From positions 59,533 to 123,532 of the forward strand of contig JAFGTS010000044.1 of assembly GCA_016933965.1 (NCBI GenBank): a stretch of DNA of 64,000 nt, read 5' to 3'. The translations under genes were made by a program, and so were the position numbers. Positions 2,358 through 60,281 of this stretch are shown here, in pieces. Below the pieces are notes generated by a model, which had not been told where the DNA came from, ran no database searches, and saw only the letters and a program-made list of their open reading frames with translations. How positions within the stretch are numbered: position 1 is the stretch's first letter; each line of letters starts with the position of its first letter. The DNA comes from Deltaproteobacteria bacterium (GTDB lineage Bacteria > Desulfobacterota > Syntrophia > Syntrophales > UBA2210).

Positions 2358-3281
2358 ATGAAGAACACGATGAAAGAAAGTCCTGACATGGCACAGGCGC
2401 TCAAGGATTTCGAATCCTATATCGAGATCGAAAAAAACTTTTCCCGTCACACGAAACGCGGGTATCTGGCCGATCTGCATCAGTTTCAGGAGTTTCTTTC
2501 CGAGAAGGGCATCACAAGCGTCGGCGAGGTGGACCGGTCGATCATCAGGGCCTTTCTGGCATTGCTCTATCGCAGGGAGAACAAGAAAGTGACCGTGTCA
2601 AGAAAGATAGCGAGCCTGCGGGCGTTCTTCAAATATCTGCTGCGCGAGGGAAAGATATCATACAGTCCCGCCGAAATGGTGCAGGCGCCCAAGGCTGACC
2701 GGTACCTGCCCACGGTACTGTCCGTGGATGAAATATTTTCGGTCCTGGGGATCGCTTTTCCCGGTGACCTCTTCGGGTTGAGGGACCGGGCGATAATTGA
2801 ACTCATGTATTCGTCAGGTGTCAGGGTCAGTGAATTGACGGGCCTCAACGACGGCGACGTGAACAGCCGGCAGCAGGTGATGAAGATCCGGGGAAAGGGA
2901 AAGAAGGAACGGATCGTACCTGTCGGGAATCATGCCCTGGCGGCGATCGACGCATATCAGGCGAAACGGAAAGAGCTCTTCGGGGCGACGGAAGAGGCCC
3001 CTCTTTTCGTGAACAGCCGGGGTGGACGCCTGTCGACTCGCAGCGTGAGGAGGATCATCGACAAGTATATCCTGCAGAGCGGTGTGAATCGGAAGATCTC
3101 CCCCCATGTGCTGCGGCATACCTTCGCCACGCACTTGCTCGATGCCGGTGCGGACATGCGGGTGATCCAGGAACTGCTCGGTCACGAAAGCCTCTCGACG
3201 ACCCAGAAGTACACATCGCTGAGCGTAAGCCGTCTCATGGAGATATACGATAAAAGCCATCCACGGGCACAGAAAGGGTAG
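2358..3281 (+). CDS. xerC: Tyrosine site-specific recombinase XerC/XerD family
   Basis: ORF 2256..3281; C-terminal catalytic [12 protein letters not shown]...GH....TT..YT motif; sits upstream of hslVU as codV/xerC does in other bacteria; the first 34 codons overlap the previous ORF, so ATG 2358 is preferred. Confidence 0.85.
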
Positions 3282-8421: not shown

Positions 8422-8424
8422 ACG

Positions 8425-9633: not shown

Positions 9634-9720
9634 CGCACGGCGCGGAACGCATCGGGAAACATTCCGGGACCGGATGAACAGGACCGGCGGAAGACGGCCG
9701 GGAAAAGGCGGGACACTCCT

Positions 9721-11106
9721 ATGAGTAAAAGCAAAAAGCCCTGGGGAGGGCGGTTTCGGGAATCCACCGATCAGCAGGTGGAGGAATTCACCGCCTCCAT
9801 CCACTTCGACAAGCGGCTCTTCCGTTACGACATCGAAGGAAGCATCGCCCATTGCAGGATGCTGGCGCGCAAAAGGATCGTCACGGCCGCGGAGTCGAAA
9901 AAGATCATAGCCGGCCTCAGGGAGATCGGCCGCGACATGGAAGAGGGAACCTTTTCCTTTCAGGCCGATTGTGAAGATATCCATATGGCCGTGGAGAAGG
10001 CCCTGATCAAGCGTGTCGGCGAGGCGGGCGGAAAACTGCACACGGGGCGCAGCCGGAACGATCAGGTGTCGCTGGATGTGCGGCTTTATCTGCGGAGTGA
10101 GGTGCGTGGGATACGGAAGATGCTGGGCGCGTTCATGGGGACGCTCACCGCCGCGGCCCGGCGGGAGCTGGACACGATCCTCCCGGGGTACACCCACCTC
10201 CAGCGGGCGCAACCGGTCCTGCTGGCCCATTATCTTCTTGCCTTCCGGGAGATGTTGCGGCGCGATAGCGAGCGGCTCGAGGAATGCCTGGCGAGGATCA
10301 ATGTCATGCCTCTCGGTTCGGCGGCCCTCGCCGGTACGGGGATCCCCGTCGACCGGGAATACGTGGCACGGCTCCTGAAATTCCCCGGGATCTCCCGGAA
10401 CAGTATGGACGCCGTTTCGGACCGTGATTTCATTGCCGAGTTCATCTTTGATGCGGCGCTGCTCATGATGCACCTGAGCCGCTTCTGCGAAGACCTGATC
10501 ATCTGGTCGAGCGACGAGTTCGGTTTCGCGGAGATTTCCGATGCCTTTACGACAGGGAGCAGCATCATGCCGCAGAAAAAGAACCCTGATGTGGCGGAAC
10601 TCATCAGGGGCAAGACGGGACGGATCTACGGTAACCTCGTCACCCTGCTGACGGTGCTCAAGGCATTGCCGATGACCTACAACCGGGACCTTCAGGAGGA
10701 CAAGGAACCGCTCTTCGATACGGTCGATACCGTGAAGGCCTCGCTGTCGGTTCTCGACGCCATGGTGAAGAAGGTACGGTGGAACCGGAAACGGATGCGC
10801 GAGGCGGCGACGGAAGGGTACGCGACGGCCACGGACCTCGCGGAATGCCTCGTGAAAAAAGGCGTTCCCTTCAGGGAAGCCCACGGCATCGTGGGACGCC
10901 TGGTCGCGTATGCGATCGAAAAGGGAGTGCTTCTGGGTGACCTCGACCTGGACGAGATGCGACGTTTTTACCCGGCTGCGGATGAAGGGATATACCGGTG
11001 CCTTGACGTGGAACATTCCCTGCGGGCGCGGGCCGGTGTCGGGGGAACGTCAAGACAGTCCGTCCTGGCGAGGCTGAAAGAGATAGATGATGAAAAAGCG
11101 TCATAG
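9721..11106 (+). CDS. argH: Argininosuccinate lyase
   Basis: 461 aa; fumarate-lyase signature GSSIMPQKKNPD. Confidence 0.95.
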   Translation: MSKSKKPWGGRFRESTDQQVEEFTASIHFDKRLFRYDIEGSIAHCRMLARKRIVTAAESKKIIAGLREIGRDMEEGTFSFQADCEDIHMAVEKALIKRVGEAGGKLHTGRSRNDQVSLDVRLYLRSEVRGIRKMLGAFMGTLTAAARRELDTILPGYTHLQRAQPVLLAHYLLAFREMLRRDSERLEECLARINVMPLGSAALAGTGIPVDREYVARLLKFPGISRNSMDAVSDRDFIAEFIFDAALLMMHLSRFCEDLIIWSSDEFGFAEISDAFTTGSSIMPQKKNPDVAELIRGKTGRIYGNLVTLLTVLKALPMTYNRDLQEDKEPLFDTVDTVKASLSVLDAMVKKVRWNRKRMREAATEGYATATDLAECLVKKGVPFREAHGIVGRLVAYAIEKGVLLGDLDLDEMRRFYPAADEGIYRCLDVEHSLRARAGVGGTSRQSVLARLKEIDDEKAS

Positions 11107-16600: not shown

Positions 16601-16675
16601 GCGGGCGTAACTCAGCGGTAGAGTGCCACCTTGCCAAGGTGGACGTCGACGGTTCGAATCCGTTCGCCCGCTCCA
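16601..16675 (+). tRNA. tRNA-Gly (anticodon GCC), CCA encoded
   Basis: Hand-folded cloverleaf: acceptor gcgggcg/cgcccgc, anticodon arm ccacc-ttGCCaa-ggtgg, T-arm cgacg? region with ggttcgaatcc loop, terminal tcca. Confidence 0.93.
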
Positions 16676-16688
16676 ATTTATTTATACG

Positions 16689-16764
16689 GGCGGCATAGCC
16701 AAGTGGCTAAGGCAGCGGTCTGCAAAACCGTTATTCACCGGTTCGAATCCGGTTGCCGCCTCCA
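16689..16764 (+). tRNA. tRNA-Cys (anticodon GCA), CCA encoded
   Basis: Acceptor ggcggca/tgccgcc, anticodon arm gcggt-ctGCAaa-accgt, T-loop ggttcgaatcc, terminal tcca. Confidence 0.93.
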
Positions 16765-16775
16765 GTGATATCAAG

Positions 16776-16809
16776 GACCTGCCTGTAACAAGGCAGGTCC
16801 TTCCTTTTT
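16776..16809 (+). terminator. Rho-independent terminator after the tRNA pair
   Basis: 9-bp stem gacctgcct/aggcaggtc with a 6-nt loop, followed by cttccttttt. Confidence 0.8.
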
Positions 16810-20023: not shown

Positions 20024-20056
20024 AAAAAAAAGGGGTGAGGCCGCCGGCCTCACCCC
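20024..20056 (-). terminator. Rho-independent terminator downstream of the nitronate monooxygenase-like gene
   Basis: 11-bp stem ggggtgaggcc/ggcctcacccc with a 3-nt loop; on the minus strand it is followed by an 8-nt U run (plus-strand aaaaaaaa 20024-20031). Confidence 0.8.
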
Positions 20057-20076
20057 TGTGATACCCATATTTTCCT

Positions 20077-25086: not shown

Positions 25087-26583
25087 TCAATTGCCGGGAA
25101 ACAGGTTCGGCCGGAACGACTCCGGTTTCTGTGCGGGATCGGTATGAGGCGACCTGTCCGGGGAGCGGAGGGCGTCGAGCCCCTTTTTGATATCGCGGGC
25201 CAGATCACTTTCCGGAGGGGCATGTTTCAAGGCTTCCTCGAAATGAAAGACGGCGCTCTTGACCTTGTCCTGCTTTTTGAAATAGATGCCGAAATTGTAG
25301 TGGGACTCGGGCTGATCGTTCATCTTTCCGTAGACCATGGCGAGATTGTAGTAGATGTCGGTGTCGGCGGGCATCCTGTCACGATATTGCCGATACAGAT
25401 CGAGGGCTTCCGGGTATTCTTCGAAAACCTCGCAGGTCCTTCCAAGATAGAAGAGGGTTTTCGGGTCCGTCGCGTTGAGCTGATGGGCGTGTTCCAGGAA
25501 GGTGCGTGCTTCCTGGATGTCTCCCTTGTTGAAATAACTGATCCCGCGGTCCCTGATGATATCGGGGTCATCCGGTGACCGTTCAAGTGCCCGCTTGAAA
25601 TACTTCCCGGATTCTGCCGATCTTCCGAGCCTGTCCAGTATCACGGCCGATCCATAGAGCCCCTCAACGTCATCGGGATCGGTGTCCAGCCGGTTCTGGA
25701 AATACTTCAGTTGTGATTCCGGGTTGTCCTTTTCCAGCTCAAGGATCGTCTGGACCCGGTCGAACTCATTGAATATGCGCTCGCTTCCTCCCTGCCGGTA
25801 ACGGGTCTGGAGCAACCCGTCGATATATCTGATCCGGTCACCCGTACCGGGGTGCGTGAGAAAATAGGATGGAACCGAGTTCGAGATGTATTCGTGCTGT
25901 CTCATGATCTTCAGAAAATCGAGCATTCCCTTTCCGTCATAGCCGGCGCTGACCAGATAGGACAGGCCCATCAGGTCCGCTTCCTCTTCATGCTCCCGGC
26001 TGTACTTGAGATTCAGGGTCGCCGCCGTGGCGAGTGAGAGGCTGGCGACCGCCGCCGTTCCCTCGCCGCCGCCGCCCAGAAAGGCGCCGGCCAGGATCGC
26101 GGCCAGCGCCGCGATATTGACCTTCCCCGATTTTTCTATGATCTGCGCGATATGACGCGCCCTGACGTGGGCTATCTCGTGCGCGAGAACACCGGCAAGC
26201 TCGTTCTCGTGCTCCGCCAGCGTTATGAGGCCGCTGTAAACATAGACATAGCCGCCCGGTGTGGCGAAGGCGTTGATTCCCGGATTATCAATAACGGTAA
26301 AGGTGAAATCAAAGGGGGAGGCACCCCCCTGGGAGAGAATGCGTTCACCCAGGTCCGTTATGTATTTCTGAACACGGCTGTCGGTGACGAGCATTCCCTT
26401 CCGTTCGAGCTTTTCATAGAACTCCTTGCCGATCCGTCTCTCGTCGTCGACGGACAGGCCGGCGGCGGTCCCCGCCGTCCAGGCAAGGAACAGGAACACA
26501 CTGATACAAATAAAAAGGGGTCTTGCGATCGATCCGTAACGATGGGAATCCATAGTGGCGGAGAATACCTCCTTTCCTTCCAT
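25087..26583 (-). CDS. M48-family Zn metalloprotease with C-terminal TPR repeats (BepA/YfgC-like), secreted
   Basis: 498 aa; N-terminal signal/TM region, HEIAHV zincin motif, TPR-like repeats in the C-terminal half. Confidence 0.85.
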   Translation of the reverse strand: MEGKEVFSATMDSHRYGSIARPLFICISVFLFLAWTAGTAAGLSVDDERRIGKEFYEKLERKGMLVTDSRVQKYITDLGERILSQGGASPFDFTFTVIDNPGINAFATPGGYVYVYSGLITLAEHENELAGVLAHEIAHVRARHIAQIIEKSGKVNIAALAAILAGAFLGGGGEGTAAVASLSLATAATLNLKYSREHEEEADLMGLSYLVSAGYDGKGMLDFLKIMRQHEYISNSVPSYFLTHPGTGDRIRYIDGLLQTRYRQGGSERIFNEFDRVQTILELEKDNPESQLKYFQNRLDTDPDDVEGLYGSAVILDRLGRSAESGKYFKRALERSPDDPDIIRDRGISYFNKGDIQEARTFLEHAHQLNATDPKTLFYLGRTCEVFEEYPEALDLYRQYRDRMPADTDIYYNLAMVYGKMNDQPESHYNFGIYFKKQDKVKSAVFHFEEALKHAPPESDLARDIKKGLDALRSPDRSPHTDPAQKPESFRPNLFPGN

Positions 26584-32164: not shown

Positions 32165-35100
32165 TCACGACAGCTCCTTCCATTTTTTCAGTGCCGTGAA
32201 ATAGAGCCCGCAGGTGACGACCGACCGGTCGATCCCTTCAAAACGAGACAGCATCGCCTGGTAGTCTTCCAGCTGTGAACGATACCGCCGCAGTTCCTCA
32301 TCCATGAACTCTTCCGCACCTTGCCCCGCCGCCGGCCGTGAGGTCTTGAAATCGATGACCCACCAGGAGGTTCCGTCAAAAACGGTCAGGTCGATGGTGC
32401 CCGAGCGGATGCGCTCGTCTGTTTTTCTGTCCTCGAGGGACCACTCGCAGCGTACGACGGGGTGCCCGCCGCCGGTCAGATCCGAGAGAAACGGATCCTC
32501 AAACGAGCGTCGTGCCTCTTGAAGAATGTCCGCCGCCATTGATGAAGCCTGGGTGGCGGAGAGCCCTTCAAGGCGGAGCGCCGACCGGACGGCAACTTCC
32601 CCGGGCAGGCCTCCCGTTTCAATTCCCCGTTGCATGAGCCGGTGAATGACCGTTCCCCTGACGCGGTCGCTCAGGCCCGCCTTCGGCGATTCCGCTTCCA
32701 CGGGCCTTGCTTCATCATCATCGAATGCCCCGGAAGAGGGGTTTTCTATCATGCAGGGAATTTTTTCCGGCGTCAGAGGATAGGGGGCCGGCAGTTCGGG
32801 ACGGAACGAACGTTTTGCCAGTGCCGGGGCCTCACAGGGGGGATTGACGGCGATCTCCAGCCCGGATGCGGATACTCCCGCCACGTCCGCCGCCGTCTTT
32901 CCCGTCATGCCCTGATAATTCATGATCCAGCCGAGCGGGTTCTGCGTGCCGGCCTTGAAGGCCCCCTCCTTCAGGGTCGTGACACCGCTCAGATACAGGC
33001 TCTCCCGCGCCCTTGTCACGGCGACGTAGAACCAGCGCCTTGCCTCGCCGATCTTCCGTTCCTTCCTGATGTTCCTGAGGAGATTGTAGAACAGTGACGG
33101 CTGGTCGATCCGCCGGTCCGGTGACATGGCGATCAGGCGTTCACCCTTCGTGCCGGGAATGCGCTCGAGCAGATAGGGCGGGGCATGTCGGGACTCTCCC
33201 GACAGGGGGTTCCAGTCCAGGAAAGGGAGAAACACGATATCGAATTCGAGGCCCTTTGCCCGGTGGATGGTCATCAACTGGACGGGCGACCTGGCCGTCG
33301 TGGGGTCTTCCGGCTCGTAGTGGAAGTCCAGAAGAGTTTCGACCCGGTTGAGGGTTTCCAGGGGGATCCCTCTCTCCGCCTCGTCAAGAAGCTCAAGGAA
33401 CCGCCTGCAATTTGCGATCCCCGCCATGTCGTACCGTGATGCCGTCCGGGCGGGGCCATCGAGCTCCTCCCACATTTTTCGAACAATGACACCCAGGTGG
33501 TCCCGTCCGATCCGCCTATAGGCGCGATCCACGGCATCTTCGACGATGGAAAGGCCGGGCAGTTTCCCTGAGGCTTCGGCGATCTTTTCCCGCCAGCTTT
33601 CGGGTGCTTCCAGCGCCGTTTCCAGGAGGGCCGCCGTATCGTACCACGACCAGGGAGAGCGAAGCAGCGATGCCCAGGCAAGGTCGTCGTGGGGTTTGAC
33701 GAGAAGGCGGGCCATCTGCATGAGGTGCGCCACCTCCGGTCGCTCCTTCAGGAGCAGCCCTTCCTGAACCCGCACGGGGATGCCGGCCTGCTTGAGCGCC
33801 CGGAGATAGACGGTCAGCCTGGTACGGGTGAAGAGAAGGATGCCGATGGATCTCTCTCCTCCCGTTTCAGTGACCACCTGGCCGATCCTGCCGGCCAGCC
33901 AGAGGGCCTCGTCGGTTTTCGCCCGCTCCTTCTCATCCCTGACGAAGAGGTTGAGGGACAGGGTCGTATCGGCCGTTCCTTGCTTCACCGGCGACCCGGG
34001 ACTGAAGGACACTTCGTCGGCTTCCACCCGGGGTTCCCGCATGACCTCCTCGCCGAAAAGGCCGTTCGTCCATTCGATCAGTTTTCCCGTGGAGCGGAAA
34101 TTCGTTCTCAAAAGGAGCGATTCCAGGGGGATCGACCCCCGGCCGGGCAGGGGGATCCCTTTCAGGGCTTCGTAAAAGAGGGCGACCTCGGCGTTCCGGA
34201 AGGCATAGATGGATTGCTTCGGGTCACCGACGATGAAGACCGTCCTGCCGTCGCCCGGACCCCACCCGCTGCACAGCCGCTGGATCAGGTCCCACTGGTT
34301 TCTGCTCGTGTCCTGAAATTCATCGACCAGCAGGTGCTGTATCCGATGGTCGAGATAGAGATGCAGCTCCGAGGGGTCGCTTTCATTCAACACCCTGAGG
34401 GCGGCCTGTTCCAGCCCCACGAAATCGATACAGTGCCGGCTCCCGCAGAGTGACTCGTAGTCTCCGATGACCTCGGCGGCGAGGATAATGAAATCGTCCA
34501 GGTCGTTCATATTCACTGGCATGTCGTCCATCGCCGGATAGAAGCGTGTTGCCTGGAGCAGTGCCGCTGTTTTCGGCGGCATCCCGGTGATCGCTTTGGC
34601 CCATGCCGTTTTCCCGAAACCGCTGTAGAAGCCGCTCTTGGGTCCAAAGGTCCTTCTCGGCCTGCCATCCTTGGTCAGCAGGGACGCGGCGATGCTGCGC
34701 CATGCCGGCAGGTTCTCCCAGGAACTTCCGGGAAGGCGGGAGGGGAAAACCGATGCGTTCTCTGCGTCGTTGGACGCCAGGTCGGCGATGAACCGCGGCC
34801 ACTGCGAACCGGGCTCTTTCTTCGCGAAATCAGCTGCAAGCCCGGACAGGCGTTCTTCCAGATACCCTGCGAGCCGTTCACGGATGATGGATGTGAGCGC
34901 ATCCCTGTTTCCGTACCCGGCTTCCCTGAGCGCCCGGACAAGGTCGGTGAACTTGTCGCGCTGAGAGATAATATCCTTCAGCTCCGCCGCCAGCGCGCTC
35001 CAGTTGTTATTGTAATGAAGGAGGCGGTTCGTGAAGGCCCGCCGCGTTACATCGCCGGAGGGCAGGGCAAAGAGGCGGTTCGAAGTCTTCCTCACCGATT

Positions 35101-35566
35101 CTTCCAGCAGAAGGGGCTGGTCCTGGTCCGCCGAGATGTCGAAGCCGGGGACGATGCCGGCTTCCAGCGGCGCGTGGCTGACGAGGTAACTGCAGAAACC
35201 ATGAAAAGTCATCACGTTCAGGCCCTTCGACGACAGGAGGACGTCTTTTCGCTCATAGTGCTTTTCAAGGGCCCGCGCGGCGTATTCCAGCAGAAGGCTG
35301 TCGGGAAGGTCCGTGTCCGTCGTTTCGTGAACCTCTTCCGCCCTGCGGAGAAAGGTCTGGATGCGGCCCTGCATCTCTCCCGCCGCCTTTTCGGTAAAGG
35401 TCAGAGCTATGATGTCGCGGGGGTGGTCGACCTCTCCCAGCAGTTTCAGAAATCTCATGGTGAGGAGAAGCGTTTTCCCCGAGCCGGCCGGTGACTCCAC
35501 ATGATAGGACGCCCCTGTATCAAGCGCCATCGATCGTTCCCGCGAATCGCCGAGCTCAGGTTTCAT
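32165..35566 (-). CDS. addA: AddA-like UvrD/Rep-family helicase with C-terminal PD-(D/E)XK nuclease
   Basis: 1133 aa; Walker A SPAGSGKT, UvrD motifs (LVDEFQDTS, FIVGDPKQSIY, TIHRAKGLEFD), C-terminal GTIDL...VIDFKT nuclease motif. Confidence 0.85.
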   Translation of the reverse strand: MKPELGDSRERSMALDTGASYHVESPAGSGKTLLLTMRFLKLLGEVDHPRDIIALTFTEKAAGEMQGRIQTFLRRAEEVHETTDTDLPDSLLLEYAARALEKHYERKDVLLSSKGLNVMTFHGFCSYLVSHAPLEAGIVPGFDISADQDQPLLLEESVRKTSNRLFALPSGDVTRRAFTNRLLHYNNNWSALAAELKDIISQRDKFTDLVRALREAGYGNRDALTSIIRERLAGYLEERLSGLAADFAKKEPGSQWPRFIADLASNDAENASVFPSRLPGSSWENLPAWRSIAASLLTKDGRPRRTFGPKSGFYSGFGKTAWAKAITGMPPKTAALLQATRFYPAMDDMPVNMNDLDDFIILAAEVIGDYESLCGSRHCIDFVGLEQAALRVLNESDPSELHLYLDHRIQHLLVDEFQDTSRNQWDLIQRLCSGWGPGDGRTVFIVGDPKQSIYAFRNAEVALFYEALKGIPLPGRGSIPLESLLLRTNFRSTGKLIEWTNGLFGEEVMREPRVEADEVSFSPGSPVKQGTADTTLSLNLFVRDEKERAKTDEALWLAGRIGQVVTETGGERSIGILLFTRTRLTVYLRALKQAGIPVRVQEGLLLKERPEVAHLMQMARLLVKPHDDLAWASLLRSPWSWYDTAALLETALEAPESWREKIAEASGKLPGLSIVEDAVDRAYRRIGRDHLGVIVRKMWEELDGPARTASRYDMAGIANCRRFLELLDEAERGIPLETLNRVETLLDFHYEPEDPTTARSPVQLMTIHRAKGLEFDIVFLPFLDWNPLSGESRHAPPYLLERIPGTKGERLIAMSPDRRIDQPSLFYNLLRNIRKERKIGEARRWFYVAVTRARESLYLSGVTTLKEGAFKAGTQNPLGWIMNYQGMTGKTAADVAGVSASGLEIAVNPPCEAPALAKRSFRPELPAPYPLTPEKIPCMIENPSSGAFDDDEARPVEAESPKAGLSDRVRGTVIHRLMQRGIETGGLPGEVAVRSALRLEGLSATQASSMAADILQEARRSFEDPFLSDLTGGGHPVVRCEWSLEDRKTDERIRSGTIDLTVFDGTSWWVIDFKTSRPAAGQGAEEFMDEELRRYRSQLEDYQAMLSRFEGIDRSVVTCGLYFTALKKWKELS

Positions 35567-38207
35567 CGGGTTCCTCGTGGTTCGGTAATTCAGTTGCCTG
35601 CAATCCTTTTCGGCAGACGGTGCGGACAGGGCAGCCCCGGCAGACGGCCTCCGGGTCCTTTACGTCCGAAAAGGGACAGGGTTCAGCCGGGAACCGAGCC
35701 TCTTTGAGGAGCTCCCCCAGCCGGGATATGACAGCGGTCCACTCATCAAGCGATGCCGTGATCTCCGGGACCTCCCGGAATGTGACCTCCCGGAGTGACT
35801 TCACCTGCACGTATCCCGCCGACGCGCCCGTCACGTCACCCGCATTGATATCCAGGCCGCGTGTCTTCCCCTCGCGGACGGCCATGAGGTACAACGGGAG
35901 CTGAGGCGCTTTGAAGGCTTTCGTGATGTCCGCCTTTGCCGGAAGATTTCCCGTCTTGTAATCCCAGCAGGCAATGCCGCCCGTCCCGCTGACATCGATC
36001 CGGTCTATCCTGCCGCGAAGCGAAAAGGGCCAGTCGGACAGTTTCAGGTCCTGAAAGCTGATCTCTTCCCCGACGCATTGCCAGCCTTCCAGCCGGTGCT
36101 CGGCTTCCTTTTCGAGCCAGGCCGTCAGGAGGCCCGGCTGCGCGGAGTCTTTCAATTCAAGCCATCGTTCCCGTTCCACGACCCACCGGGGGTCACGGGA
36201 CAGCGCTCCCAGGACCGTATCCACGCATGATTCAATGATCTCCCGTGATGCAGCACGCTCCCGGGTCACATCAAGACCGGCTTCCCGAATTTTTCTCGTG
36301 AACGCCGACAATACCCGGTGGAGCGCGATCCCCCGTTCACGCGGCGGGATCCCCGGTCCTGCGTCGTCAAGGGGTTCGATCCCGGCGATGGTCTCGACGA
36401 AGTACCGGAAGGGACAGGAAAGGGCCGCTTCCACCTGGGTCGGTGAAAGGACGTCCCTTTGCGCAATGGCGGGGAGCACGGGGTCTTCGGTGTCCTCGAT
36501 GTCCGTCCCCAGACCGCGGAACGCCGCCTGTAGCCAGGTCGCCCGGCTCCAGGCGGGTCCCGGATCGTTCCAGATGTCAATGCCGGTCGTCTCTGCGTGC
36601 CGCGGCCAGAACGGCGAGGGCGTCAACGGCTTTGACTGTTCCTGTTCGGCCCGTGTCAGGATCACGCCTTCCGCAGAGCGCAGGAGCCGGGAAAAGCTCC
36701 GCCGCGCGAAATCATGCTGGCTTTCCACGGTTCCTCCCTGGACGAGAGCGCGTTCACGCCCGTCGAGAAGGGGAAGGGGTCGCGCCGGCTGGGGAAATGA
36801 ACCGTCATTCATGTCCAGCAGGTAGAGCCGTTCGAAATCAAGGCCGCGGGACTCGATGATACCAATGACCTGGATGCCGGCCTCTTCCGATGCAGAGACC
36901 TGCGCCGTCGTTCGGGATGCCAGGTACTCCAGCCAGGAAAGGAACTCACGCCCGTTCATGAGGACCGCTGACAGATGGGCCGCAAAAATGTCGAGGATGC
37001 TTACGAGGTGCCCCTGATCGACGGTATCCTTTTCGTCGGATATCACGGGAAAGCCGAGGTGCTTCCAGAGGGTGTTCATTTCTCCCGCCCAGAAGGCCCC
37101 CTCTTTTCTTGTTTCAAGATCCCGCTCCAGGAATGAGAAGAGATGCTCCGCCGGTTCCGGGCGGACCTGTTCCAGGATGTCGGGCCGCTCTTTCTTCAAT
37201 GCCCGCATGAGATGTCCGAGGCCGGAATCGACGGCGGCGGCACGCCAGACGCGGTCCGCACGGGCTATGGCGTGACGCTTTCCCTGCCAGCAGCCGTAAT
37301 ACGGTGAGAGAAGAAGGGCCATGAACAGGTCTCGATCGTATCCCTCAAGGGCGAAACGCAGGGGAAGAAGGGCCGCCCGTACGAGGGCCGTTTCGCTCAG
37401 GGGGACGCCGCGGGTCATGTTGAACCACTGGCTGCCCCGCGCGGGGACCTCGGCGGTGACTTCCGCAAGGGCTTTTTCGATCATCCCCACGTAGCCGTCC
37501 ATATCGGGGACGACGACACCGATCCGGTGAAGCGGTATGGACCGGGCGTCTTCGACCAGACACCGCGTAAGATACTGCACTTCCTGCTCCCGGGTGGGGA
37601 GTGCCACGGCCCGGGGAACGGCCGCCTGTGAGAGCGGATCATCGATATGTTCACAGTTGCCTCTCATGCGGAACAGGGCAAAGAGATCCTCTTCCAGCGG
37701 CGCCGGGAGATCGAACCCGGCAAGCCGGACCTTGGCGGGGCAGGGGATCCTGTCCGCTTCGATGGCCTGCCGGACGTGGAGAGGAAGTTCCGCGGGGTGG
37801 AAATACCCGTCTTTCCGAAGGGCTTCTTCAAAGGCACGGCTGATGGTTCGCCGCCATTCGACAAGGGGGGGCGCAGGAGCGCCTCTTTTCGGGTCGATCC
37901 GATGTCGAACCAGGGTCTTATAGGTTTCGTCAAGGAGGGTGAATATACCGAAACCACCCTTCAGAGGCTCCGGCGGTGGTATTTTTTCCGACAGGGTTCT
38001 CCACAGGTTGATACGGTGCGGTTCCGGGGCGGGAACACGTTCGGGCCACGCATCGGCCCAGGCCGCTGAGAGCCACACGTTCAGGCTGACCGCCGGCGGG
38101 CGTTCCCAGGCCGTTTCATCCTCGAGCACGCGGGACCGTCGGAAACGATGACGCAATCTGCGGGCAAGTCTCCCCGTCGCGGTAAGGTACAGGTGATCAG
38201 GGTCCAT
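35556..38207 (-). CDS. addB: AddB-like PD-(D/E)XK nuclease subunit with a Fe-S cluster Cys set
   Basis: 883 aa; no intact Walker A; C-terminal nuclease domain with SCPFRYF ... GRIDRID...WDYKTG ... CPF...CRGCPVRTVC (C..CxxCx5C pattern); 11-nt overlap with the addA-like gene. Confidence 0.8.
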   Translation of the reverse strand: MDPDHLYLTATGRLARRLRHRFRRSRVLEDETAWERPPAVSLNVWLSAAWADAWPERVPAPEPHRINLWRTLSEKIPPPEPLKGGFGIFTLLDETYKTLVRHRIDPKRGAPAPPLVEWRRTISRAFEEALRKDGYFHPAELPLHVRQAIEADRIPCPAKVRLAGFDLPAPLEEDLFALFRMRGNCEHIDDPLSQAAVPRAVALPTREQEVQYLTRCLVEDARSIPLHRIGVVVPDMDGYVGMIEKALAEVTAEVPARGSQWFNMTRGVPLSETALVRAALLPLRFALEGYDRDLFMALLLSPYYGCWQGKRHAIARADRVWRAAAVDSGLGHLMRALKKERPDILEQVRPEPAEHLFSFLERDLETRKEGAFWAGEMNTLWKHLGFPVISDEKDTVDQGHLVSILDIFAAHLSAVLMNGREFLSWLEYLASRTTAQVSASEEAGIQVIGIIESRGLDFERLYLLDMNDGSFPQPARPLPLLDGRERALVQGGTVESQHDFARRSFSRLLRSAEGVILTRAEQEQSKPLTPSPFWPRHAETTGIDIWNDPGPAWSRATWLQAAFRGLGTDIEDTEDPVLPAIAQRDVLSPTQVEAALSCPFRYFVETIAGIEPLDDAGPGIPPRERGIALHRVLSAFTRKIREAGLDVTRERAASREIIESCVDTVLGALSRDPRWVVERERWLELKDSAQPGLLTAWLEKEAEHRLEGWQCVGEEISFQDLKLSDWPFSLRGRIDRIDVSGTGGIACWDYKTGNLPAKADITKAFKAPQLPLYLMAVREGKTRGLDINAGDVTGASAGYVQVKSLREVTFREVPEITASLDEWTAVISRLGELLKEARFPAEPCPFSDVKDPEAVCRGCPVRTVCRKGLQATELPNHEEPDET

Positions 38208-40533: not shown

Positions 40534-41022
40534 ATGAATTCCATCCTTGTCCGCGTTGACAACAGACTTGTTCACGGACAGATACTGGAAGCCTGGGTTC
40601 CCTACTTCAGGGCGAACTGTATCGTTGTCCTCAATGATGATGTGGCCGGAGATGTGTTTCGTGAGTCGGTCATCAGGATGGTGGTGCCCAGCGAGATAGA
40701 GGTACAGGTCCACGGCGTTGAGGAATTCGCGGAACATTTCAACCCCGGCGAGTGGAGCGGCAGGCGGACCATCGTTCTGATCAGGGATATACGGGACGCG
40801 CTGCGGGCCTTCCGGAAGGGGTTTTCCTTTTCACGGATCAACATCGGCAACGTGCATAATGACGACGGCAAATGCTGCGTGACGGCATCCATCTTTCTCG
40901 ATGAGCTGGATGTGAAGGCACTGAATGAACTGGTCGGATCGGGGGTGACCGTTGAACTGCGATGCATACCGCAGGACAACCCGATCGGTTTCAGTGATGC
41001 CGCCGCAAAGATCTCATTATAG
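40534..41022 (+). CDS. PTS mannose/sorbose-family EIIB component
   Basis: 162 aa; VRVDNRLVHGQ active-site His motif of EIIB-Man/Sor. Confidence 0.85.
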   Translation: MNSILVRVDNRLVHGQILEAWVPYFRANCIVVLNDDVAGDVFRESVIRMVVPSEIEVQVHGVEEFAEHFNPGEWSGRRTIVLIRDIRDALRAFRKGFSFSRINIGNVHNDDGKCCVTASIFLDELDVKALNELVGSGVTVELRCIPQDNPIGFSDAAAKISL

Positions 41023-41039
41023 AGAACGGTGAAACGGCC

Positions 41040-41726
41040 ATGTGGAAAACCGTCCTTGAGGTGGCCCTCCTGGGAGGAATCGTCTGCCTGGACAGGATTT
41101 TTCTGCAGGCGCTCATCTCCCGTCCCCTCGTTGCCGGTTCCATAACGGGGCTGTTCCTCCATGACCCGCTCACCGGCATGATCGCCGGTGCCTATATCGA
41201 ACTGCTCTGGATCGACCGGCTGCCCATCGGCTCGTACCTGCCCCCCAACGATTCCATTGTCGCCATCCTTGCCGCGGCGTCGGCGATCCTGGTGGGAAGA
41301 ACGATCGAGGCGACGTCCCCCGTCCTGATCACCCTGGCGATACTCCTCTTTCTTCCGGCCGGGCTTCTGGGACGGCGGCTGGACGGGATGCTTGCCGCGA
41401 CGAACACCGGCCTGGCCCTCAGGGCCGAAGAGGCCGCCGCTGAAGGGAATACCTCGAAGATCACGCGATACCATCTGACGGCCCTGCTGAGGCACTTTGT
41501 GACCACCGCGACGGCGCTCTTCGTCCTTCTCATGGTCGGGCTTTTCCTGATCGAAAGGATCGTGCCTCATTTCCCCGAGGGCATTCACCGGGCCCTCGGC
41601 GTGCTGTACTGTTTCATCCCGGTCCTCGGTATCGGCGTGGCCCTGAACACCATCAAGGTCCGGGGGGCGCTGCCGCTTTTCTCGGGTCTCTTTCTGGTGG
41701 TCATGGTGATGCGGTATCTCTGGTAG
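41040..41726 (+). CDS. PTS mannose/sorbose-family EIIC membrane component
   Basis: 228-aa polytopic membrane protein; GGIVCLDR...SRPLVAGSITGL..GD pattern resembles EII-Sor (IIC). Confidence 0.7.
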   Translation: MWKTVLEVALLGGIVCLDRIFLQALISRPLVAGSITGLFLHDPLTGMIAGAYIELLWIDRLPIGSYLPPNDSIVAILAAASAILVGRTIEATSPVLITLAILLFLPAGLLGRRLDGMLAATNTGLALRAEEAAAEGNTSKITRYHLTALLRHFVTTATALFVLLMVGLFLIERIVPHFPEGIHRALGVLYCFIPVLGIGVALNTIKVRGALPLFSGLFLVVMVMRYLW

Positions 41727-41743
41727 AACACCGGCGGGGAAGG

Positions 41744-42214
41744 GTGAGAACATTCATGGATGACGTGATGGTTCGTGACATGACGGAGAACGACCTGGCG
41801 GAGGTCATGGGGATCGAGCGTTCCTCCTTCGTTACCCCCTGGACGGAAAAGCTCTTCAGGGAAGAATTCTCCCTGCCGTTCTGCCACGACCTCGTGGCCG
41901 AAAAAGACGGAACGATACTGGGATATATCAGCTTTGCCGTGGTTGTCGATGAGATCCACCTCAGGAACCTTGCCGTGCGGGAAGATCAAAGGAGGCAGGG
42001 TGTCGCCTCGTCGCTTCTGTCGGCGATGGCGGCGAGGGGCCGCGGGCAGGGTGCCCTGAGGGCGACCCTGGAAGTGAGAAAATCCAACAGGGCGGCGATA
42101 AACTTGTACACAAAAAGGGGTTTTGTGATACAAGGGATTCGCCCCTTCTATTATACGGACACCAGGGAAGACGCCCTGATCCTCTGGGGGGATCTGGCGG
42201 ACAAAGGAGCGTGA
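41744..42214 (+). CDS. rimI: Ribosomal-protein-alanine N-acetyltransferase (GNAT)
   Basis: 156 aa; GNAT motif A LAVREDQRRQGVASSLL; RimI-like length and N-terminus. Confidence 0.75.
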   Translation: MRTFMDDVMVRDMTENDLAEVMGIERSSFVTPWTEKLFREEFSLPFCHDLVAEKDGTILGYISFAVVVDEIHLRNLAVREDQRRQGVASSLLSAMAARGRGQGALRATLEVRKSNRAAINLYTKRGFVIQGIRPFYYTDTREDALILWGDLADKGA

Positions 42215-45826: not shown

Positions 45827-45948
45827 ATCAAACAGCTCCTGACAAAGCGTATGCACAGGGATTCCGAAAAGCTGCGCGTCTTTTTCGCTCAGTTTTTTGA
45901 TGACGGCGACCTGCAGGCGTTATGACAGGACAATCGAAAGGAGGTCCC

Positions 45949-46230
45949 ATGTTACCCCGGAAACAAAAACAGAGGTACGAAGCGTTCTTCGGGTCAACAG
46001 CCCAGAATGGTATTTTAGATCCAAAAACAACCGTTATGGTCCAGTTGGCAGCCTCGTTCGCCATTGGTTGTTATCCATGAATGGAGCACTTCTTTGGCGT
46101 TGCCAAAGAAAACGGCCTTACGGACGATGAGATCGGTGCAGTGCAATCCATAACTATGGCAGTATCGGCAGGAAGAATAAGAGCACAGTTCAGACAGGTA
46201 AGAGAAAACATGGGCATTGATGGGAAATAA
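45949..46230 (+). CDS. AhpD/carboxymuconolactone-decarboxylase-family putative selenoprotein (in-frame TGA at 46078-46080 read as Sec; C-Y-P-U motif)
   Basis: ATG 45949 preceded by SD gaaaggagg. Codons 1-43 end in AASFAIGCYP, then TGA, and the same frame continues MEHFFGVAKENGLTDDEIGAVQSITMAVSAG... to TAA 46228-46230. The joined 93 aa equals one CMD domain with TGA at the second Cys of the CxxC motif. A hairpin follows. Confidence 0.7.
46090..46110 (+). promoter_or_regulatory. SECIS-like hairpin downstream of the in-frame UGA
   Basis: Perfect 9-bp stem ttctttggc/gccaaagaa with a GUU apical loop; the stem starts 9 nt after the UGA, and the loop G lies 19 nt after it. Confidence 0.55.
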
Positions 46231-46414
46231 CGGCATACCATCAGGTTATGAAGAACCGAGCTGTACTTATGTGGCAAGGCACAGACAGGAGATCGAGCGG
46301 TCCTTGAGGGACCGGTGATGCATGACAAGGCGCCGAACCGGGACACGGTCCTTACGGACCACGCCCGATCAACGCCGTGTGGCATAAAACAGGGACGATG
46401 GAGGGCATGGACGA

Positions 46415-49780: not shown

Positions 49781-49825
49781 CGCGTGCGTCCAACGCCGAC
49801 TGCCGGGGCAGCGGCGGTACTGAGA

Positions 49826-51208
49826 TCACAGGATCAGTTCTTCCACGAATTCGATCAGCTGGTTCAGGTTCCGGCACGGCCTGAGTTCGTGGCAGTAAGG
49901 TTTGTAGGCGAACATTTCACTGTCTCCGGAATTCCACTCACTTTCCGGTTCCGGATTGAGCCATATGACCCGGCGGCTCTTCTCGCGCATTTCCGAAAGT
50001 ATCCTGTCCTCCGGATGGAAGTAGTTCGTCCTCGCGTCGCCGATGATAATGAGGGTTGTCTTCTTGTTCAGAATATCCAGGTAATCTCTTTTGAAGTGCC
50101 GGAATGTTTCGCCGTAGTCCGTTGGAGCGTAGTATTCAATGTCGGTTTCGTGAAGCACCTTTTCAATGGCACTGTTGATCTCGTGATTTTCGAAGATGTC
50201 CGTTACCTCGGCGAGACCGGAGACGAAGATGAAACTGTTCACCTTGGTGAAGCATTCCTGGAGGGAATAGAGGATGTTGAGCATGAAACGGGCCGCCGAC
50301 CACACGGAACTGGAAACGTCACAGAGGGTAACTATCTTTCCCCTGCGGGGCGGACGTTTCTTGAAGGCCAGTTCCACCGGTGTTCCCTGGTAGCGCATCG
50401 CCTTGCGGAGGGTCTTTTTGATATCAAGGACACCTCGGCTCCTGGCCGCGTAGCGGCGGCTTACGATATCCTTGAGCTTTCTGACGAGCCGGTCCACCAC
50501 GTCCCGGACCTCCTCGACCTCCTGTTGGGTCAGGGCGGAAAAGGGACGTTCGCCCAGGTACTTGAGATGCTGCTCGTAACTTCTGATGTTCTGCAGGTCA
50601 TCATAGAGGGGGCGCGGTTCATGCATGAGGAGCGAGTAGGCGCTGTCGAGGTGTCTGTTGAAGAAGTCGACCGCGTTGTGTCGCTCGATCCCCGCCGTGG
50701 AAGCGTACCGGTCATCGAGAAACTGGATCACCTTGGCGCGGACGGCATTGATCTGCATGAGAATTTCGAGGCGGCCGGCGAGTGGCCCCAGGTTGAATCT
50801 GACGTTCTGTGGCGCGTCATGGTCCATGTTCCGCATATGTCGGAGTGCGGTCAGGTACGCCAGGGGGTCTCCCGAGAGAAAATCCAGAAGCGACCGGTAG
50901 AGCATATCTCCGTTCGCCCGCTGGTAAAGAATTTCCATGGTGTCCCTGATAAGCCCGGCAAAGGGGTCGTCCTCGGACAGACCGCTGTCTTTGCCCATTT
51001 CATGAAAGAAGAGATGGTAGAGACGGTCGAATTTCGCCTGGTCGCGGCGGCTCTTGACGAAGTTTGTTCGCAGGACGGTTCTGAACTGGACCTCGTCGAT
51101 GGTGTCGATCAGCTCGAGCTGGTTCAGGCAGTCCAGCACCTCCGCCGTCGACACGCGAAGGTCGGCGGCGCGGCAGCTCGACACAAATTTCAATATAAGG
51201 TTAACCAT
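49826..51208 (-). CDS. VWA domain-containing CoxE-like protein
   Basis: 460 aa; C-terminal VWA with a MIDAS-like LCDVSSSV, then IIIGDARTNY and VIWLNPEP...W..GDS blocks typical of the CoxE family. Confidence 0.8.
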   Translation of the reverse strand: MVNLILKFVSSCRAADLRVSTAEVLDCLNQLELIDTIDEVQFRTVLRTNFVKSRRDQAKFDRLYHLFFHEMGKDSGLSEDDPFAGLIRDTMEILYQRANGDMLYRSLLDFLSGDPLAYLTALRHMRNMDHDAPQNVRFNLGPLAGRLEILMQINAVRAKVIQFLDDRYASTAGIERHNAVDFFNRHLDSAYSLLMHEPRPLYDDLQNIRSYEQHLKYLGERPFSALTQQEVEEVRDVVDRLVRKLKDIVSRRYAARSRGVLDIKKTLRKAMRYQGTPVELAFKKRPPRRGKIVTLCDVSSSVWSAARFMLNILYSLQECFTKVNSFIFVSGLAEVTDIFENHEINSAIEKVLHETDIEYYAPTDYGETFRHFKRDYLDILNKKTTLIIIGDARTNYFHPEDRILSEMREKSRRVIWLNPEPESEWNSGDSEMFAYKPYCHELRPCRNLNQLIEFVEELIL

Positions 51209-52127
51209 TCAATCCCGCCCGGGGGGTTATTGAATCGATATGTTCCCGGACCTTTTGTGAGTCCGCCCGATATTTGCAGATCACGTTCAGGGTTTCCAGG
51301 ATAACACCGGGCGTTATGTCCTCCACCTGAAGGGCGATAAGCGATTGGGCCCAGTCAAGGCTTTCCGATATGCAGGGTTTTTTCTTCAGGTCCAGGTCCC
51401 GTATCTTTCGAACGGTTTCGACGAGTTGCTGTACCAGCCGCTCCCCGATGCCGGGGATCTTGAGCCTGATAACCCGCATTTCAAGCTCCCGTTCCGGATA
51501 TTCGATGTAGATGTGAATGCACCGCCGTTTCAGGGCATCGCTCATGTCACGATAATTATTCGACGTGAGCACCACAAAGGGAATGTTCATCGCCCGCCGG
51601 GTCCCCAGTTCCGGGATGGAAACCTGAAAGTCGCTCAGAAGTTCCAGGAGAAACGCCTCGAATTCCGGGTCGGACTTGTCCACTTCGTCTATCAGGAGAA
51701 CCACCGGTGCCGGTGAACTGATCGCCTGGAGAAGGGGGCGGGGCTGGATGAACCGCTCGGAAAAAAAGGCGTCTTCCTGTTTCGCGATGCGGTCAACGGC
51801 ATCAGACAGCGTTCCGGCGCCGGCGATGACGTCCTGTATTTTCTCCTTTACCATCTGCGTGTAGAGAAGCTGTTTCGCGTATTCCCATTCGTACAGCGCC
51901 TTTGCTTCGTCAAGGCCTTCGTAACACTGGAGCCGGATCATCTCCCGTTCAAGGCCCCGTGCCACCGCCTTGGCAAGCTCCGTTTTCCCCACTCCCGCGG
52001 GTCCCTCCACCAGAATGGGCTTCCCCGTGGCTCCCGCGAGAAACACGACGGTGGCGATCTCCCGTGAGGAAATGTATCCCGCCTGTTCAAGTCTTTTTTC
52101 AACATCTTCAACGGATTTGAATGCCAT
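51201..52127 (-). CDS. MoxR/CoxD-like AAA+ ATPase
   Basis: 308 aa; Walker A GPAGVGKTELAKA, Walker B LLIDEVDK; 8-nt overlap with the downstream VWA gene. Confidence 0.85.
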   Translation of the reverse strand: MAFKSVEDVEKRLEQAGYISSREIATVVFLAGATGKPILVEGPAGVGKTELAKAVARGLEREMIRLQCYEGLDEAKALYEWEYAKQLLYTQMVKEKIQDVIAGAGTLSDAVDRIAKQEDAFFSERFIQPRPLLQAISSPAPVVLLIDEVDKSDPEFEAFLLELLSDFQVSIPELGTRRAMNIPFVVLTSNNYRDMSDALKRRCIHIYIEYPERELEMRVIRLKIPGIGERLVQQLVETVRKIRDLDLKKKPCISESLDWAQSLIALQVEDITPGVILETLNVICKYRADSQKVREHIDSITPRAGLNG

Positions 52128-58214: not shown

Positions 58215-59549
58215 TTAATTAAAGGGAAAATTGCCACGTCGAAGGGATTTCATGCCACCCTTCGTCAATTTTTTCATCATTTTCCTCATCTCGACATAGT
58301 TCTTGAGCAGCCGATTCACGTCTTGCACCGTGGTACCGCTTCCTCGGGCTATCCTTTTTCGCCGCTGGCCGTCTATGATCTGGTAGTTCATGCGCTCCTT
58401 CGCCGTCATGGAATCGATGATCGCCATGGTCCTGACAAGTTCTTTCTCATCGGGCGCGGCGTTCTTGAGGGCCTTGATCTTACCGAAACCGGGTATCATT
58501 CCGAGAATATCCTGGAGGGGCCCCATTTTCCGTATCTGCATGAGCTGATTTTTCAGGTCGTCGAGGGTGAACGAATCCTTTCTGAGCTTTTTTTCCAGAT
58601 CCCGCGCCGCTTTTTCATCGATGGTCATCTGGGCTTTCTCGACCAGCGAGAGAATGTCACCCATGCCCAGAATTCTTGAGGCCATGCGCTCGGGGTGAAA
58701 TACTTCCAGTGCGTCTATCTTTTCCCCCGTACCGATGAACTTTATCGGCCGGTCGGTCACCTTTTTCAGGGACAGCGCCGCCCCGCCGCGGGCATCGCCG
58801 TCCATTTTGGTGAGGATCACCCCACTGATGCCAAGCAACTCGTCAAAGGTCGATGCAACATTGACGGCATCCTGGCCGGTCATCGCGTCGGCGACGAAGA
58901 TGATCTCCGTGGGTTTGACCGCCTCCCTGATCCGTTTCAGCTCATCCATGAGGGCTTCGTCTATATGCAGGCGACCGGCTGTATCGATGAGAAGGGTGTC
59001 AAATCCTCTGGAATCGGCATCTTCAAGGGCGTTCAGGCATATTTTCACGGGGTCTTCCTGATTTCGAGAATCGTAGAATCCCGCCTTGACGCGTTCGCCC
59101 AGGACCTTGAGCTGTTCGATGGCCGCGGGCCGGTATATGTCCGCGGAAACAAGGGAAACCCGGTGTCCCTGGCGCATCAGATGACGTGCCAGCTTTGCCG
59201 CCGTCGTTGTTTTCCCGCACCCTTGAAGTCCGACGAGCATGACAGGCGCCGGGAACCGGCCGGACAGCCGAAGAAGGCTGCTGTCGGTTCCCATCAGGTC
59301 CACCAGGCGTTCATGGACTATCTTGACGATCTGCTGGCCGGGGGTGATGCTCTCGAGAACTTCCTGTCCCACGGCCCGTTGTCGCACATCTTCGATGAAT
59401 TCCTTGACGACCTTGAAATTGACGTCCGCTTCGAGCAGGGCGATCCTGATGTCCTTCAGGGCCAGACGGACATTCTCCTCATCCAGAATACCCCTGCTTT
59501 TGAGGTTCTTGAAAACGGAGTCGAGTTTCTCGGTCAGGTTCTCAAACAT
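58215..59549 (-). CDS. ffh: Signal recognition particle protein Ffh
   Basis: 444 aa; NG domain with GLQGCGKTTTAAKLA and DTAGRLH, plus a Met-rich M domain. Confidence 0.95.
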   Translation of the reverse strand: MFENLTEKLDSVFKNLKSRGILDEENVRLALKDIRIALLEADVNFKVVKEFIEDVRQRAVGQEVLESITPGQQIVKIVHERLVDLMGTDSSLLRLSGRFPAPVMLVGLQGCGKTTTAAKLARHLMRQGHRVSLVSADIYRPAAIEQLKVLGERVKAGFYDSRNQEDPVKICLNALEDADSRGFDTLLIDTAGRLHIDEALMDELKRIREAVKPTEIIFVADAMTGQDAVNVASTFDELLGISGVILTKMDGDARGGAALSLKKVTDRPIKFIGTGEKIDALEVFHPERMASRILGMGDILSLVEKAQMTIDEKAARDLEKKLRKDSFTLDDLKNQLMQIRKMGPLQDILGMIPGFGKIKALKNAAPDEKELVRTMAIIDSMTAKERMNYQIIDGQRRKRIARGSGTTVQDVNRLLKNYVEMRKMMKKLTKGGMKSLRRGNFPFN

Positions 59550-59573
59550 TTGTTGTACTTCCTTTTTCCTTCA

Positions 59574-60281
59574 TCAGCCGCCGGTTTTTCTGACCAGGCA
59601 GTTTATTCCCCTGATCCTGACCTCGATGGTTTCGGAGACGGCCTCTGCCTCCTGAAAGGTCCCGTATCCCTCGAGTATGAGCCGGTACCAGGTCCCCTTT
59701 GCTCCGAGCTCCACCTGTTCCACCCGGGGCGTGTACCCCAGGGAGGCGAGGCGTTCTTTCATCCGTTCCACCCGAACCGTGTCCTTGAAAGAGGCGACCT
59801 GCACAGAATATGGACCAGAAGCGGTCTTTACCGGTTCTTTCACCACCGGTGCGGACGCCTGTTCGACAGGCGCTGCCGTCGTTACCTTCTCCTGCGGTTT
59901 TTCTACTGCCACTGGCGGTGCTCCCTGCGGCAGTTTCTCTTCGGCCTTCGGTTCTTCTTTTTCCTCGGAGCGCGGCAGGGTTTCATAAAAGGTCAACCGT
60001 ATGTCGTCGCTCTCCTGTGGAGACGTATCCTTTTCGGATGTCCGTGCCCGGGCAAGCATATCAGCCGATGTTTCGATGATCTTTTTCGCGACGGCGTCGG
60101 GAATTTCCTTTGCGATCTTCTGCGGATAGCTTTCTATGTTCTTACCCACCATGACGCCGCCGATGAATGCCCCGGAAACCATCAGGGCTATCCCGATGGT
60201 AAAGAGAACGAGGCCGAGTTTTCCCAGCCTGAACTCGAAGGCTTTTGAATTCCGTGCCGGCATCAGAAAGGTCACTTTCAT
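59574..60281 (-). CDS. SPOR domain-containing membrane-anchored protein
   Basis: 235 aa; N-terminal TM, a low-complexity linker, and a C-terminal SPOR-like block YSVQVASFKD...A......L...GY. Confidence 0.7.
   Translation of the reverse strand: MKVTFLMPARNSKAFEFRLGKLGLVLFTIGIALMVSGAFIGGVMVGKNIESYPQKIAKEIPDAVAKKIIETSADMLARARTSEKDTSPQESDDIRLTFYETLPRSEEKEEPKAEEKLPQGAPPVAVEKPQEKVTTAAPVEQASAPVVKEPVKTASGPYSVQVASFKDTVRVERMKERLASLGYTPRVEQVELGAKGTWYRLILEGYGTFQEAEAVSETIEVRIRGINCLVRKTGG

Follow-up and report, generated by a model that had tools for sequence, protein, structure and literature searches.

Bacterial selenoproteins of the AhpD-like and carboxymuconolactone decarboxylase (CMD) families carry selenocysteine (Sec, U) in a CxxU motif. 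A CxxU "AhpD-like protein" and a "CMD domain-containing protein" were described from the Sargasso Sea in 2005 (PMC1088965), "AhpD-like 1" (COG2128) and "AhpD-like 2" (pfam02627) are listed among the selenoproteins of the Global Ocean Sampling data (PMC2398784), and a "Distant AhpD homolog" is known from Geobacter (PMC1794560). AhpD/CMD CxxU families, together with an ArsM/AhpD fusion, are tabulated in a 2026 review (PMC13188914), and BSepDB contains an AhpD-like family. Here, we analyzed a 64,000-nt stretch of a Deltaproteobacteria bacterium genome (contig JAFGTS010000044.1, positions 59,533 to 123,532; hereafter, the window). Its gene at 45949–46230 very probably encodes one functional CMD/AhpD-fold selenoprotein, with Sec inserted at an in-frame UGA under the direction of a selenocysteine insertion sequence (SECIS). 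The gene is an unannotated addition to the known PF02627/CxxU selenoprotein class, the published examples of which were compared by description. An earlier reading of the window made from its letters alone (the sequence-only reading) had named AhpD-like proteins as a reported selenoprotein family, notably in Deltaproteobacteria; the four papers cited above bear out such families and the abundance of selenoproteins in Deltaproteobacteria.

The "AhpD-like 2"/CMD-like family resembles the window protein in its PF02627 domain, its CxxU motif with Sec for the second Cys, a bacterial SECIS directly downstream and many Cys homologues; this comparison is by description only, and the papers on that family mention no arsM linkage for the stand-alone form. 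The joined window protein (U read as C) matched the Pfam CMD model PF02627 with 46.1 bits (cut-off 23) over residues 8–79, corresponding to profile positions 5–77 of 84. Nearly the whole profile is thus covered, as expected from the earlier proposal that the joined 93 aa form a CMD/AhpD domain. The GSU3128 family (NF041047) likewise comprises small, single-domain, AhpD-like CxxU proteins of ~84–93 residues from Deltaproteobacteria. The match to its model was partial (E = 1.4e-8, residues 20–82), and since its score of 34.7 bits lies far below the equivalog cut-off of 110, the window protein belongs to a sister subfamily rather than to GSU3128 itself. The best NCBIfam matches, over residues 8–86, were MduS (NF045649, 54.7 bits) and arsenite methyltransferase/AhpD (NF041537, 48.7 bits), below the whole-protein cut-offs of 380 and 510. 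The AhpD domains of MduS and ArsM_AhpD_UU, which have a CxxU of their own (motifs in PMC13188914), align with the window protein, whereas the latter stands alone, with 93 residues and no methyltransferase domain. No match to TIGR01926/COG2128 (AhpD-like) or NF041238 (AhpD-related) was obtained in NCBIfam at E ≤ 1, and for this subfamily the cut-off was reached with none of the curated NCBIfam models.

The predicted coding sequence (CDS; 45949–46230, + strand) comprises 93 residues with the UGA read through, as indicated by open reading frame (ORF) reading, Pfam and the orthologues. Direct reading of the sequence revealed a Shine-Dalgarno element, AAAGGAGG, at 45937–45944 (+), separated by a 4-nt spacer from the ATG start codon at 45949 (+). 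The start position is supported by the conserved N-terminal MLPxxQ and by the orthologues' own start codons: the residue at this position is Met in 59 of 80 orthologues, with a Leu codon in 18 and a Val codon in 3, and the Leu codons were TTG in all four orthologues inspected. The TGA at 46078–46080 divides the gene into halves of 43 and 49 codons. As the predicted Sec codon it closes the redox motif C41-Y-P-U44 (46069–46080, +), which begins with TGT at 46069–46071; the next codon is ATG. A SECIS-type hairpin lies within the CDS at 46090–46110 (+), and translation ends at the true stop codon TAA, 46228–46230 (+). Direct reading thus bore out the positions that the sequence-only reading had assigned to the ATG, TGA, TAA and hairpin.

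Orthologues were collected in a scan of one genome per species, which yielded 196 tblastn-confirmed relatives. The best 80 were fetched as loci and, with the window, gave a set of 81. TGA occupied exactly the same column in 81 of 81 loci, which represent about 10 phyla as suggested by the record labels. These labels include Desulfobacterales, Syntrophobacteria, Anaerolineae, Acidobacteriota, Gemmatimonadota, Bacteroidota/Ignavibacteria, Fidelibacterota, Zixibacteria and WOR-3, among others. The frame remained open for 43–62 further codons past the TGA in 80 of the 81 loci. In the 80 translated orthologues, invariant residues were found on both sides of this codon: T28 and C41 before it (Cys41 in 80/80), and G63, I68, M70, V72, A74, G75 and Q80 after it.

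Homologues of the joined protein were also searched for among 5.8 billion predicted proteins, and three classes were recovered. The first consisted of full-length proteins of 60–82% identity with "W" in the TGA column, the second of full-length proteins of 45–55% identity with Cys in this column (CYPCM), and the third of about 30 half-proteins that either ended in ...GCYP or started with MEH.... Across 47 full-length database homologues, the column contained Cys in 23, "W" in 23 and Leu in one, and never a gap. The Cys forms are encoded by a single continuous ORF, and all three Cys-form loci checked in DNA (L082, L084 and L086) have TGC in the TGA column. The column therefore pairs TGA with Cys, the pattern required by the standard Sec/Cys-pair criterion. 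The sequence-only reading had anticipated Cys or Sec at this column in homologues, without gaps, and this is what the proteins and loci contain. On this comparative evidence, UGA 46078–46080 is a conserved sense position that matches the second Cys of C-x-x-C.

Two homologues deviate from the pattern. In a metagenomic orthologue (L081:2097-2375, protein P0005), TTA (Leu) replaces TGA while the hairpin is intact. Protein P0007, read at the protein level, has Cys at the column and keeps the hairpin-encoding peptide FGVAKE. Both look like recent departures from Sec, or else sequencing errors.

The hairpin downstream of the TGA is perfect over 9 bp (ttctttggc-GTT-gccaaagaa, 46090–46110), with its stem beginning 9 nt and its loop 18 nt after the TGA. 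The conserved core consists of 7 bp, in which 46092–46098 pair with 46102–46108, and the apical loop is GUU (46099–46101). The two outer pairs are confined to the window's clade, where Phe (UUC) replaces Tyr (UAC); across the loci, the conserved form is the 7-bp core closing a G-U-N loop. According to the published model of the bacterial SECIS (bSECIS), the apical loop has 3–9 nt, the upper stem 4–16 bp, the distance from UGA to loop is 16–37 nt and the minimum free energy is ≤ −7.5 kcal/mol (PMC13188914). The loop has G in its first two positions and typically reads N1-G-[G/U]-N-N2, with N1 and N2 paired (PMC13188914). The window hairpin lies within every one of these limits (C-GUU-G, 9 bp, 18 nt, −11.1 kcal/mol), as do the hairpins of 76 of the 81 loci; the five others narrowly miss them, having a broken stem or an energy of −5.6 to −7.1 kcal/mol. 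Across the 64-kb window, only four sites form a perfect hairpin of 9 bp or more, and the chance of one falling 16–37 nt after a given TGA is ~0.001 by an arithmetic estimate from these four sites.

The region around the TGA is free of gaps in the alignment of the 81 sequences, and base pairs were counted by alignment column over the 79 distinct sequences. Pair 22–36 was U-A in 48, C-G in 28 and U-G in 3, with none unpaired, and pair 25–33 was G-C in 74, A-U in 4 and G-U in 1, again with none unpaired. Pair 24–34 was U-A in 75 and C-G in 3, with one sequence unpaired, while pair 26–32 was invariant (G-C in 79, none unpaired). The covariation score of the hairpin was 0.224 versus a shuffled mean of 0.154; none of 500 shuffles reached 0.224, and slid registers scored 0.03–0.19.

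Codon usage pointed in the same direction. In codon 49, which is Phe UUU or Leu CUU, the first base predicted the synonymous third base of codon 53, which is Lys AAA/AAG or Arg AGA/AGG (2 × 2 table with rows 49, 3 and 0, 28; p = 1.5e-18); the control test of codon 49 against Lys26, outside the stem, gave p = 0.62. Ala52 was encoded by GCC in 74 of 78 sequences, compared to 35% GCC at other Ala sites of the same genes (p = 3e-25), and Gly50 by GGC in 68 of 76, compared to 31% elsewhere (p = 7e-21). Where Gly50 is replaced by Ser (AGC), Ala52 becomes GCU and the base pair is preserved. The Cys-form genes have no such hairpin (local energy of about −4 versus about −10 kcal/mol) and also lack the peptide F/L-G-V-A-K/R-E that encodes it. 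As judged from these patterns, the hairpin is under selection as an RNA structure with bacterial SECIS geometry. Conservation of the peptide is confined to the Sec forms, apparently because the SECIS is encoded there, so that a constraint on the RNA would have shaped the protein sequence (dual coding).

These results agree with the compatibility with a bacterial SECIS that the sequence-only reading had proposed and with the conservation in orthologues that it had named as a test; compensatory changes and synonymous constraint were observed in addition. Its geometry was correct for the 9-nt gap between UGA and stem; the loop distance, given as about 19 nt, measured 18 nt. Overall, its selenoprotein interpretation is supported by the orthologous TGA, the pairing with Cys, the SECIS criteria and the covariation.

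Conservation of the TGA and of the frame downstream, pairing with Cys and a standard genetic code together leave very little room for a recoded code, two small genes or a pseudogene. The first of these alternatives holds that UGA is decoded otherwise, either through a recoded code (Trp or Gly, codes 4/25) or through hairpin-stimulated near-cognate read-through giving Trp, Cys or Arg. Public gene calls do give 23 orthologues Trp at the column, and the Sec machinery was not found within the 64-kb window. However, one of these "W" homologues (L088), checked in DNA, proved to be a TGA translated with code 4, and TGA terminates 13 of the 31 Pfam-supported window genes as well as 40 of the 81 loci, the remaining loci ending in TAA (27) or TAG (14). 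TGA is an ordinary terminator here and the genetic code is standard. Moreover, the column pairs with Cys and not with Trp, which would be inactive at this redox-active position, and the hairpin fits the SECIS model of the SelB type. We consider non-Sec decoding very unlikely.

Somewhat less probable still is that the locus comprises two small genes, or undergoes termination and reinitiation at UGA-AUG, to give peptides of 43 and 49 residues that perhaps assemble. In 77 of 80 orthologues the TGA is directly followed by ATG, and many half-proteins starting with MEH are present in public databases, as this arrangement would predict. The Cys forms (CYPCM), however, have a Met45 that is just as invariant and cannot act as a start codon there, and the codon is GTC in L062 and CTG in L080. 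The two halves jointly form one four-helix domain whose redox motif straddles the junction, and separate genes would leave the hairpin and its covariation without explanation. Relatives with two genuinely separate genes, which the sequence-only reading had listed as a possible refutation, were not encountered; the Cys forms are one ORF, with invariant residues in both halves.

A pseudogene in which a Cys-to-stop mutation (TGC/TGT to TGA) killed an AhpD-like gene is the least credible alternative: the TGA is one base from a Cys codon, gene callers see no gene here and one orthologue has decayed, but the same TGA is shared by all loci across the labeled phyla, the downstream ORF is intact and conserved in 80 of 81, invariant residues lie after the stop, and the RNA hairpin is under selection. 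In the decayed orthologue (L011:10001-10255, from a Thermodesulfovibrionia metagenome-assembled genome), the TGA is joined by two more in-frame stops, a TAA one codon later and another towards the end. This locus alone among the 81 appears to have decayed; with 79% identity to a sequence of the Desulfobacterales type, it may represent a fragment that was transferred or mis-binned.

Several observations weigh against the reading of the gene as a selenoprotein gene, or against parts of it. SelA, SelB and SelD were not found among the ~50 window ORFs in Pfam and NCBIfam scans, and ARAGORN detected no tRNA-Sec in the 64-kb window or in the sequences flanking 60 related loci. No experimental evidence of selenium incorporation was found for the subfamily. 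Folded as a single sequence, the hairpin was not significant (−13.2 kcal/mol, z = −1.26, with 22 of 200 shuffles as stable), and no Rfam family fits it, either at the gathering threshold across the whole window or at permissive E-values across 46040–46170, where the permissive scan returned only chance matches to snoRNA and sRNA models. The association with arsM described below concerns only ~20% of loci and none of the window's closest relatives (L001–L012). Finally, the canonical AhpD proton relay, formed by a Glu at −12 from the first Cys and an invariant His at +4 from the second (PMC3141380), is absent in the orthologues: position 29, the relay Glu site, is Leu, Val, Ile or Thr, and position 48, the relay His site, is Tyr or Phe. 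AhpD-type chemistry is consequently an analogy for this protein. That the source organism decodes Sec is assumed, given the gene itself and its selenoprotein-rich taxonomic neighborhood. When the window was crudely scanned for further ORFs interrupted by TGA, the noisy result comprised 139 candidates, and in none of them was the Cys/Sec context convincing.

The fold was modeled with AlphaFold (AF2) on the natural Cys-form close homologue P0007. The model (pLDDT 91.3) consists of four helices, the third of which (residues 42–54) has C41-x-x-C/U44 at its N-terminus. The structural matches in the PDB were all of the AhpD/CMD fold, the best being 3bey (O27018 of Methanothermobacter) with a TM score of ~0.8; others were RclX (7y4r), TM1620 (1vke/1p8c), an AhpD core (2ouw) and Mycobacterium tuberculosis AhpD (1gu9/1knc). 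O27018 is a single-domain CMD protein of ~96 residues, matching the window protein in size and with C-x-x-C in the same place (TM 0.79–0.81, rmsd 1.3–2.3 Å); it shares only 21–23% identity and has Cys instead of Sec, and the entry contains six chains. M. tuberculosis AhpD and the AhpD-like family (PA0269; PMC3141380) share with the window protein the all-helical architecture and a C-x-x-C that opens the second helix of a helix-turn-helix core. In contrast to M. tuberculosis AhpD, the window protein is about half the length, has Glu −12 and His +4 replaced and Sec in place of the second Cys, and shows no recurrent ahpC neighbor. The motif in the window is C-Y-P-U-M-E-H, with His at +3 in 59 of 80 orthologues, which is not the canonical AhpD spacing (+4). 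The CxxC(xxH) motif of the sequence-only reading was accordingly correct in placing UGA at the second Cys and not in its xxH part. The protein is thus one with the AhpD fold and redox motif, yet not a canonical AhpD.

Following the established bacterial mechanism, SelB carrying Sec-tRNA(Sec) would bind the G-U-N apical loop as the ribosome approaches, and selenocysteine would be delivered to the UGA instead of release factor 2 acting there. The product would bear C41-Y-P-U44 at the N-terminus of helix 3. By analogy with AhpD chemistry, Sec44 would attack as the nucleophile and Cys41 would resolve the intermediate via a selenenylsulfide. Nucleophilic attack in M. tuberculosis AhpD comes from the second Cys (Cys133), and the pKa of Sec is low; Sec44 acting as a nucleophile without a general base would fit both. 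The protein may thus be a small thiol/selenol oxidoreductase, with a disulfide, sulfenate or peroxide on a partner as the group that it reduces. Gene neighborhood and domain fusion in other genomes suggest ArsM-type arsenite methyltransferases as the likeliest partner class.

The neighbors of the window gene are PyrK, PyrD, a saccharopine-dehydrogenase-like protein and a 130-aa unknown ORF upstream, and DUF6125, DUF488, an unknown ORF, a TPR protein and lipoyl synthase (LipA) downstream. None of them is recurrent beside the orthologues, and they therefore provide no functional clue. The upstream gene was co-directional in 61 of 72 loci. The sole recurrent neighbor family was an ArsM-type methyltransferase, which accounted for 14 of the 72 upstream genes and was immediately upstream and co-directional in 14 of the 68 loci with enough upstream sequence. 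The ArsM-linked loci belong to Syntrophobacteria/Deltaproteobacteria, Anaerolineales and Terriglobia. A representative ArsM scored 360 bits on NF008823 (arsenite methyltransferase; cut-off 263), and has genes for an ArsR/SmtB regulator and an ACR3 arsenite exporter (462 bits) at its sides, as is frequent among these loci. The ArsM genes adjoining the orthologues are not UxxG selenoproteins; they are of the Cys type, with no in-frame TGA. The window gene itself is not beside arsM, and no ars gene was found within the 64-kb window. No peroxiredoxin (ahpC) was present near the window gene or among the 25 commonest families listed per side (72 genes upstream, 74 downstream).

The order arsR-arsM-ahpD(U)-ACR3 was observed in loci L023, L027, L031, L037, L038, L039, L042, L049, L051, L060, L068, L069, L070 and L073, with arsM ~0.5–1.3 kb upstream of the orthologue. 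Another small AhpD-like protein, 84–86 residues long and with Cys-Ile-Pro-Cys, is encoded ~2 kb downstream in the same ars loci (L031:3306-3566, L038:12418-12672, L039:10361-10621 and four others); its resemblance to the AhpD domains of MduS and ArsM_AhpD_UU is weak (31.7 and 29.8 bits, respectively).

The adjacency to arsM hints at a role in arsenic metabolism. Because neighborhood and domain fusion agree, we infer that, at least in the arsM-linked genomes, the protein may serve as a thiol/selenol oxidoreductase in arsenic methylation or detoxification. More tentatively, and as a possibility that we regard as rather doubtful, the stand-alone CxxU protein could be the trans-acting counterpart of the ArsM-fused AhpD domain, a dedicated selenol reductant for recycling the catalytic ArsM cysteines or for converting methylated As(V) intermediates, with copies outside ars operons serving another partner.

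The mechanical ORF list contained only pieces of 52 and 49 codons at 45949–46230. In public gene calls for the same sequence (L089, a 7.5-kb metagenome contig in the Logan assembly of run SRR13394437), the selenoprotein gene falls in a 588-nt uncalled gap (L089 positions 2283–2870, window ~45827–46414). Public protein sets show the subfamily only as "hypothetical" half-proteins, code-4 Trp mistranslations or an uncalled gap, as foreseen by the sequence-only reading, in which gene callers would miss or split the gene. Upstream, the L089 calls give a plus-strand ORF of 130 aa, versus a longer 164-aa minus-strand ORF in the mechanical list. An antisense ORF of 104 codons (46071–46385, −) overlaps the gene and is seemingly "conserved" in 36 loci, which would make it the top conserved neighbor; it was rejected as a gene, being a shadow of the conserved sense gene.

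Elsewhere in the window, the other three perfect hairpins of at least 9 bp lie at 16775–16800, 20031–20057 and 25493–25517. The first is located just past a tRNA-Gly/tRNA-Cys pair (16601–16764) and may be its terminator. Large ORFs without a Pfam match at 1e-5 were found at 9052–11016 (−), 40602–41753 (−) and 58695–60248 (+), with 654, 383 and 517 codons, respectively. Opposite the first of them, 8422–11106 (+) is open except for a single TGA at 9631. The ORF at 49784–51304 (+; 506 codons) had no Pfam match at 1e-3 and no NCBIfam match. A tyrosine recombinase with phage-integrase-family domains (2256–3281, +) and a gene pair for a UvrD-type helicase and a PD-(D/E)XK nuclease (32165–38207, −), possibly AddAB-like, are ordinary chromosomal content.

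Species-representative genomes contain the subfamily in at least 196 places confirmed by tblastn. The finding does not overturn current understanding; its use lies mainly in annotation and in a lead on arsenic metabolism. With a dedicated, Sec-flagged model, many annotations would be put right, and the selenoproteome counts of Desulfobacterota, Chloroflexota, Acidobacteriota and Gemmatimonadota would rise. The arrangement arsR-arsM-ahpD(U)-ACR3 in three phyla provides a testable functional lead for a selenoprotein class described since 2005. If the protein is indeed a trans-acting reductant of ArsM, selenium would take an active part in the methylation of arsenic by microbes in anoxic sediments.

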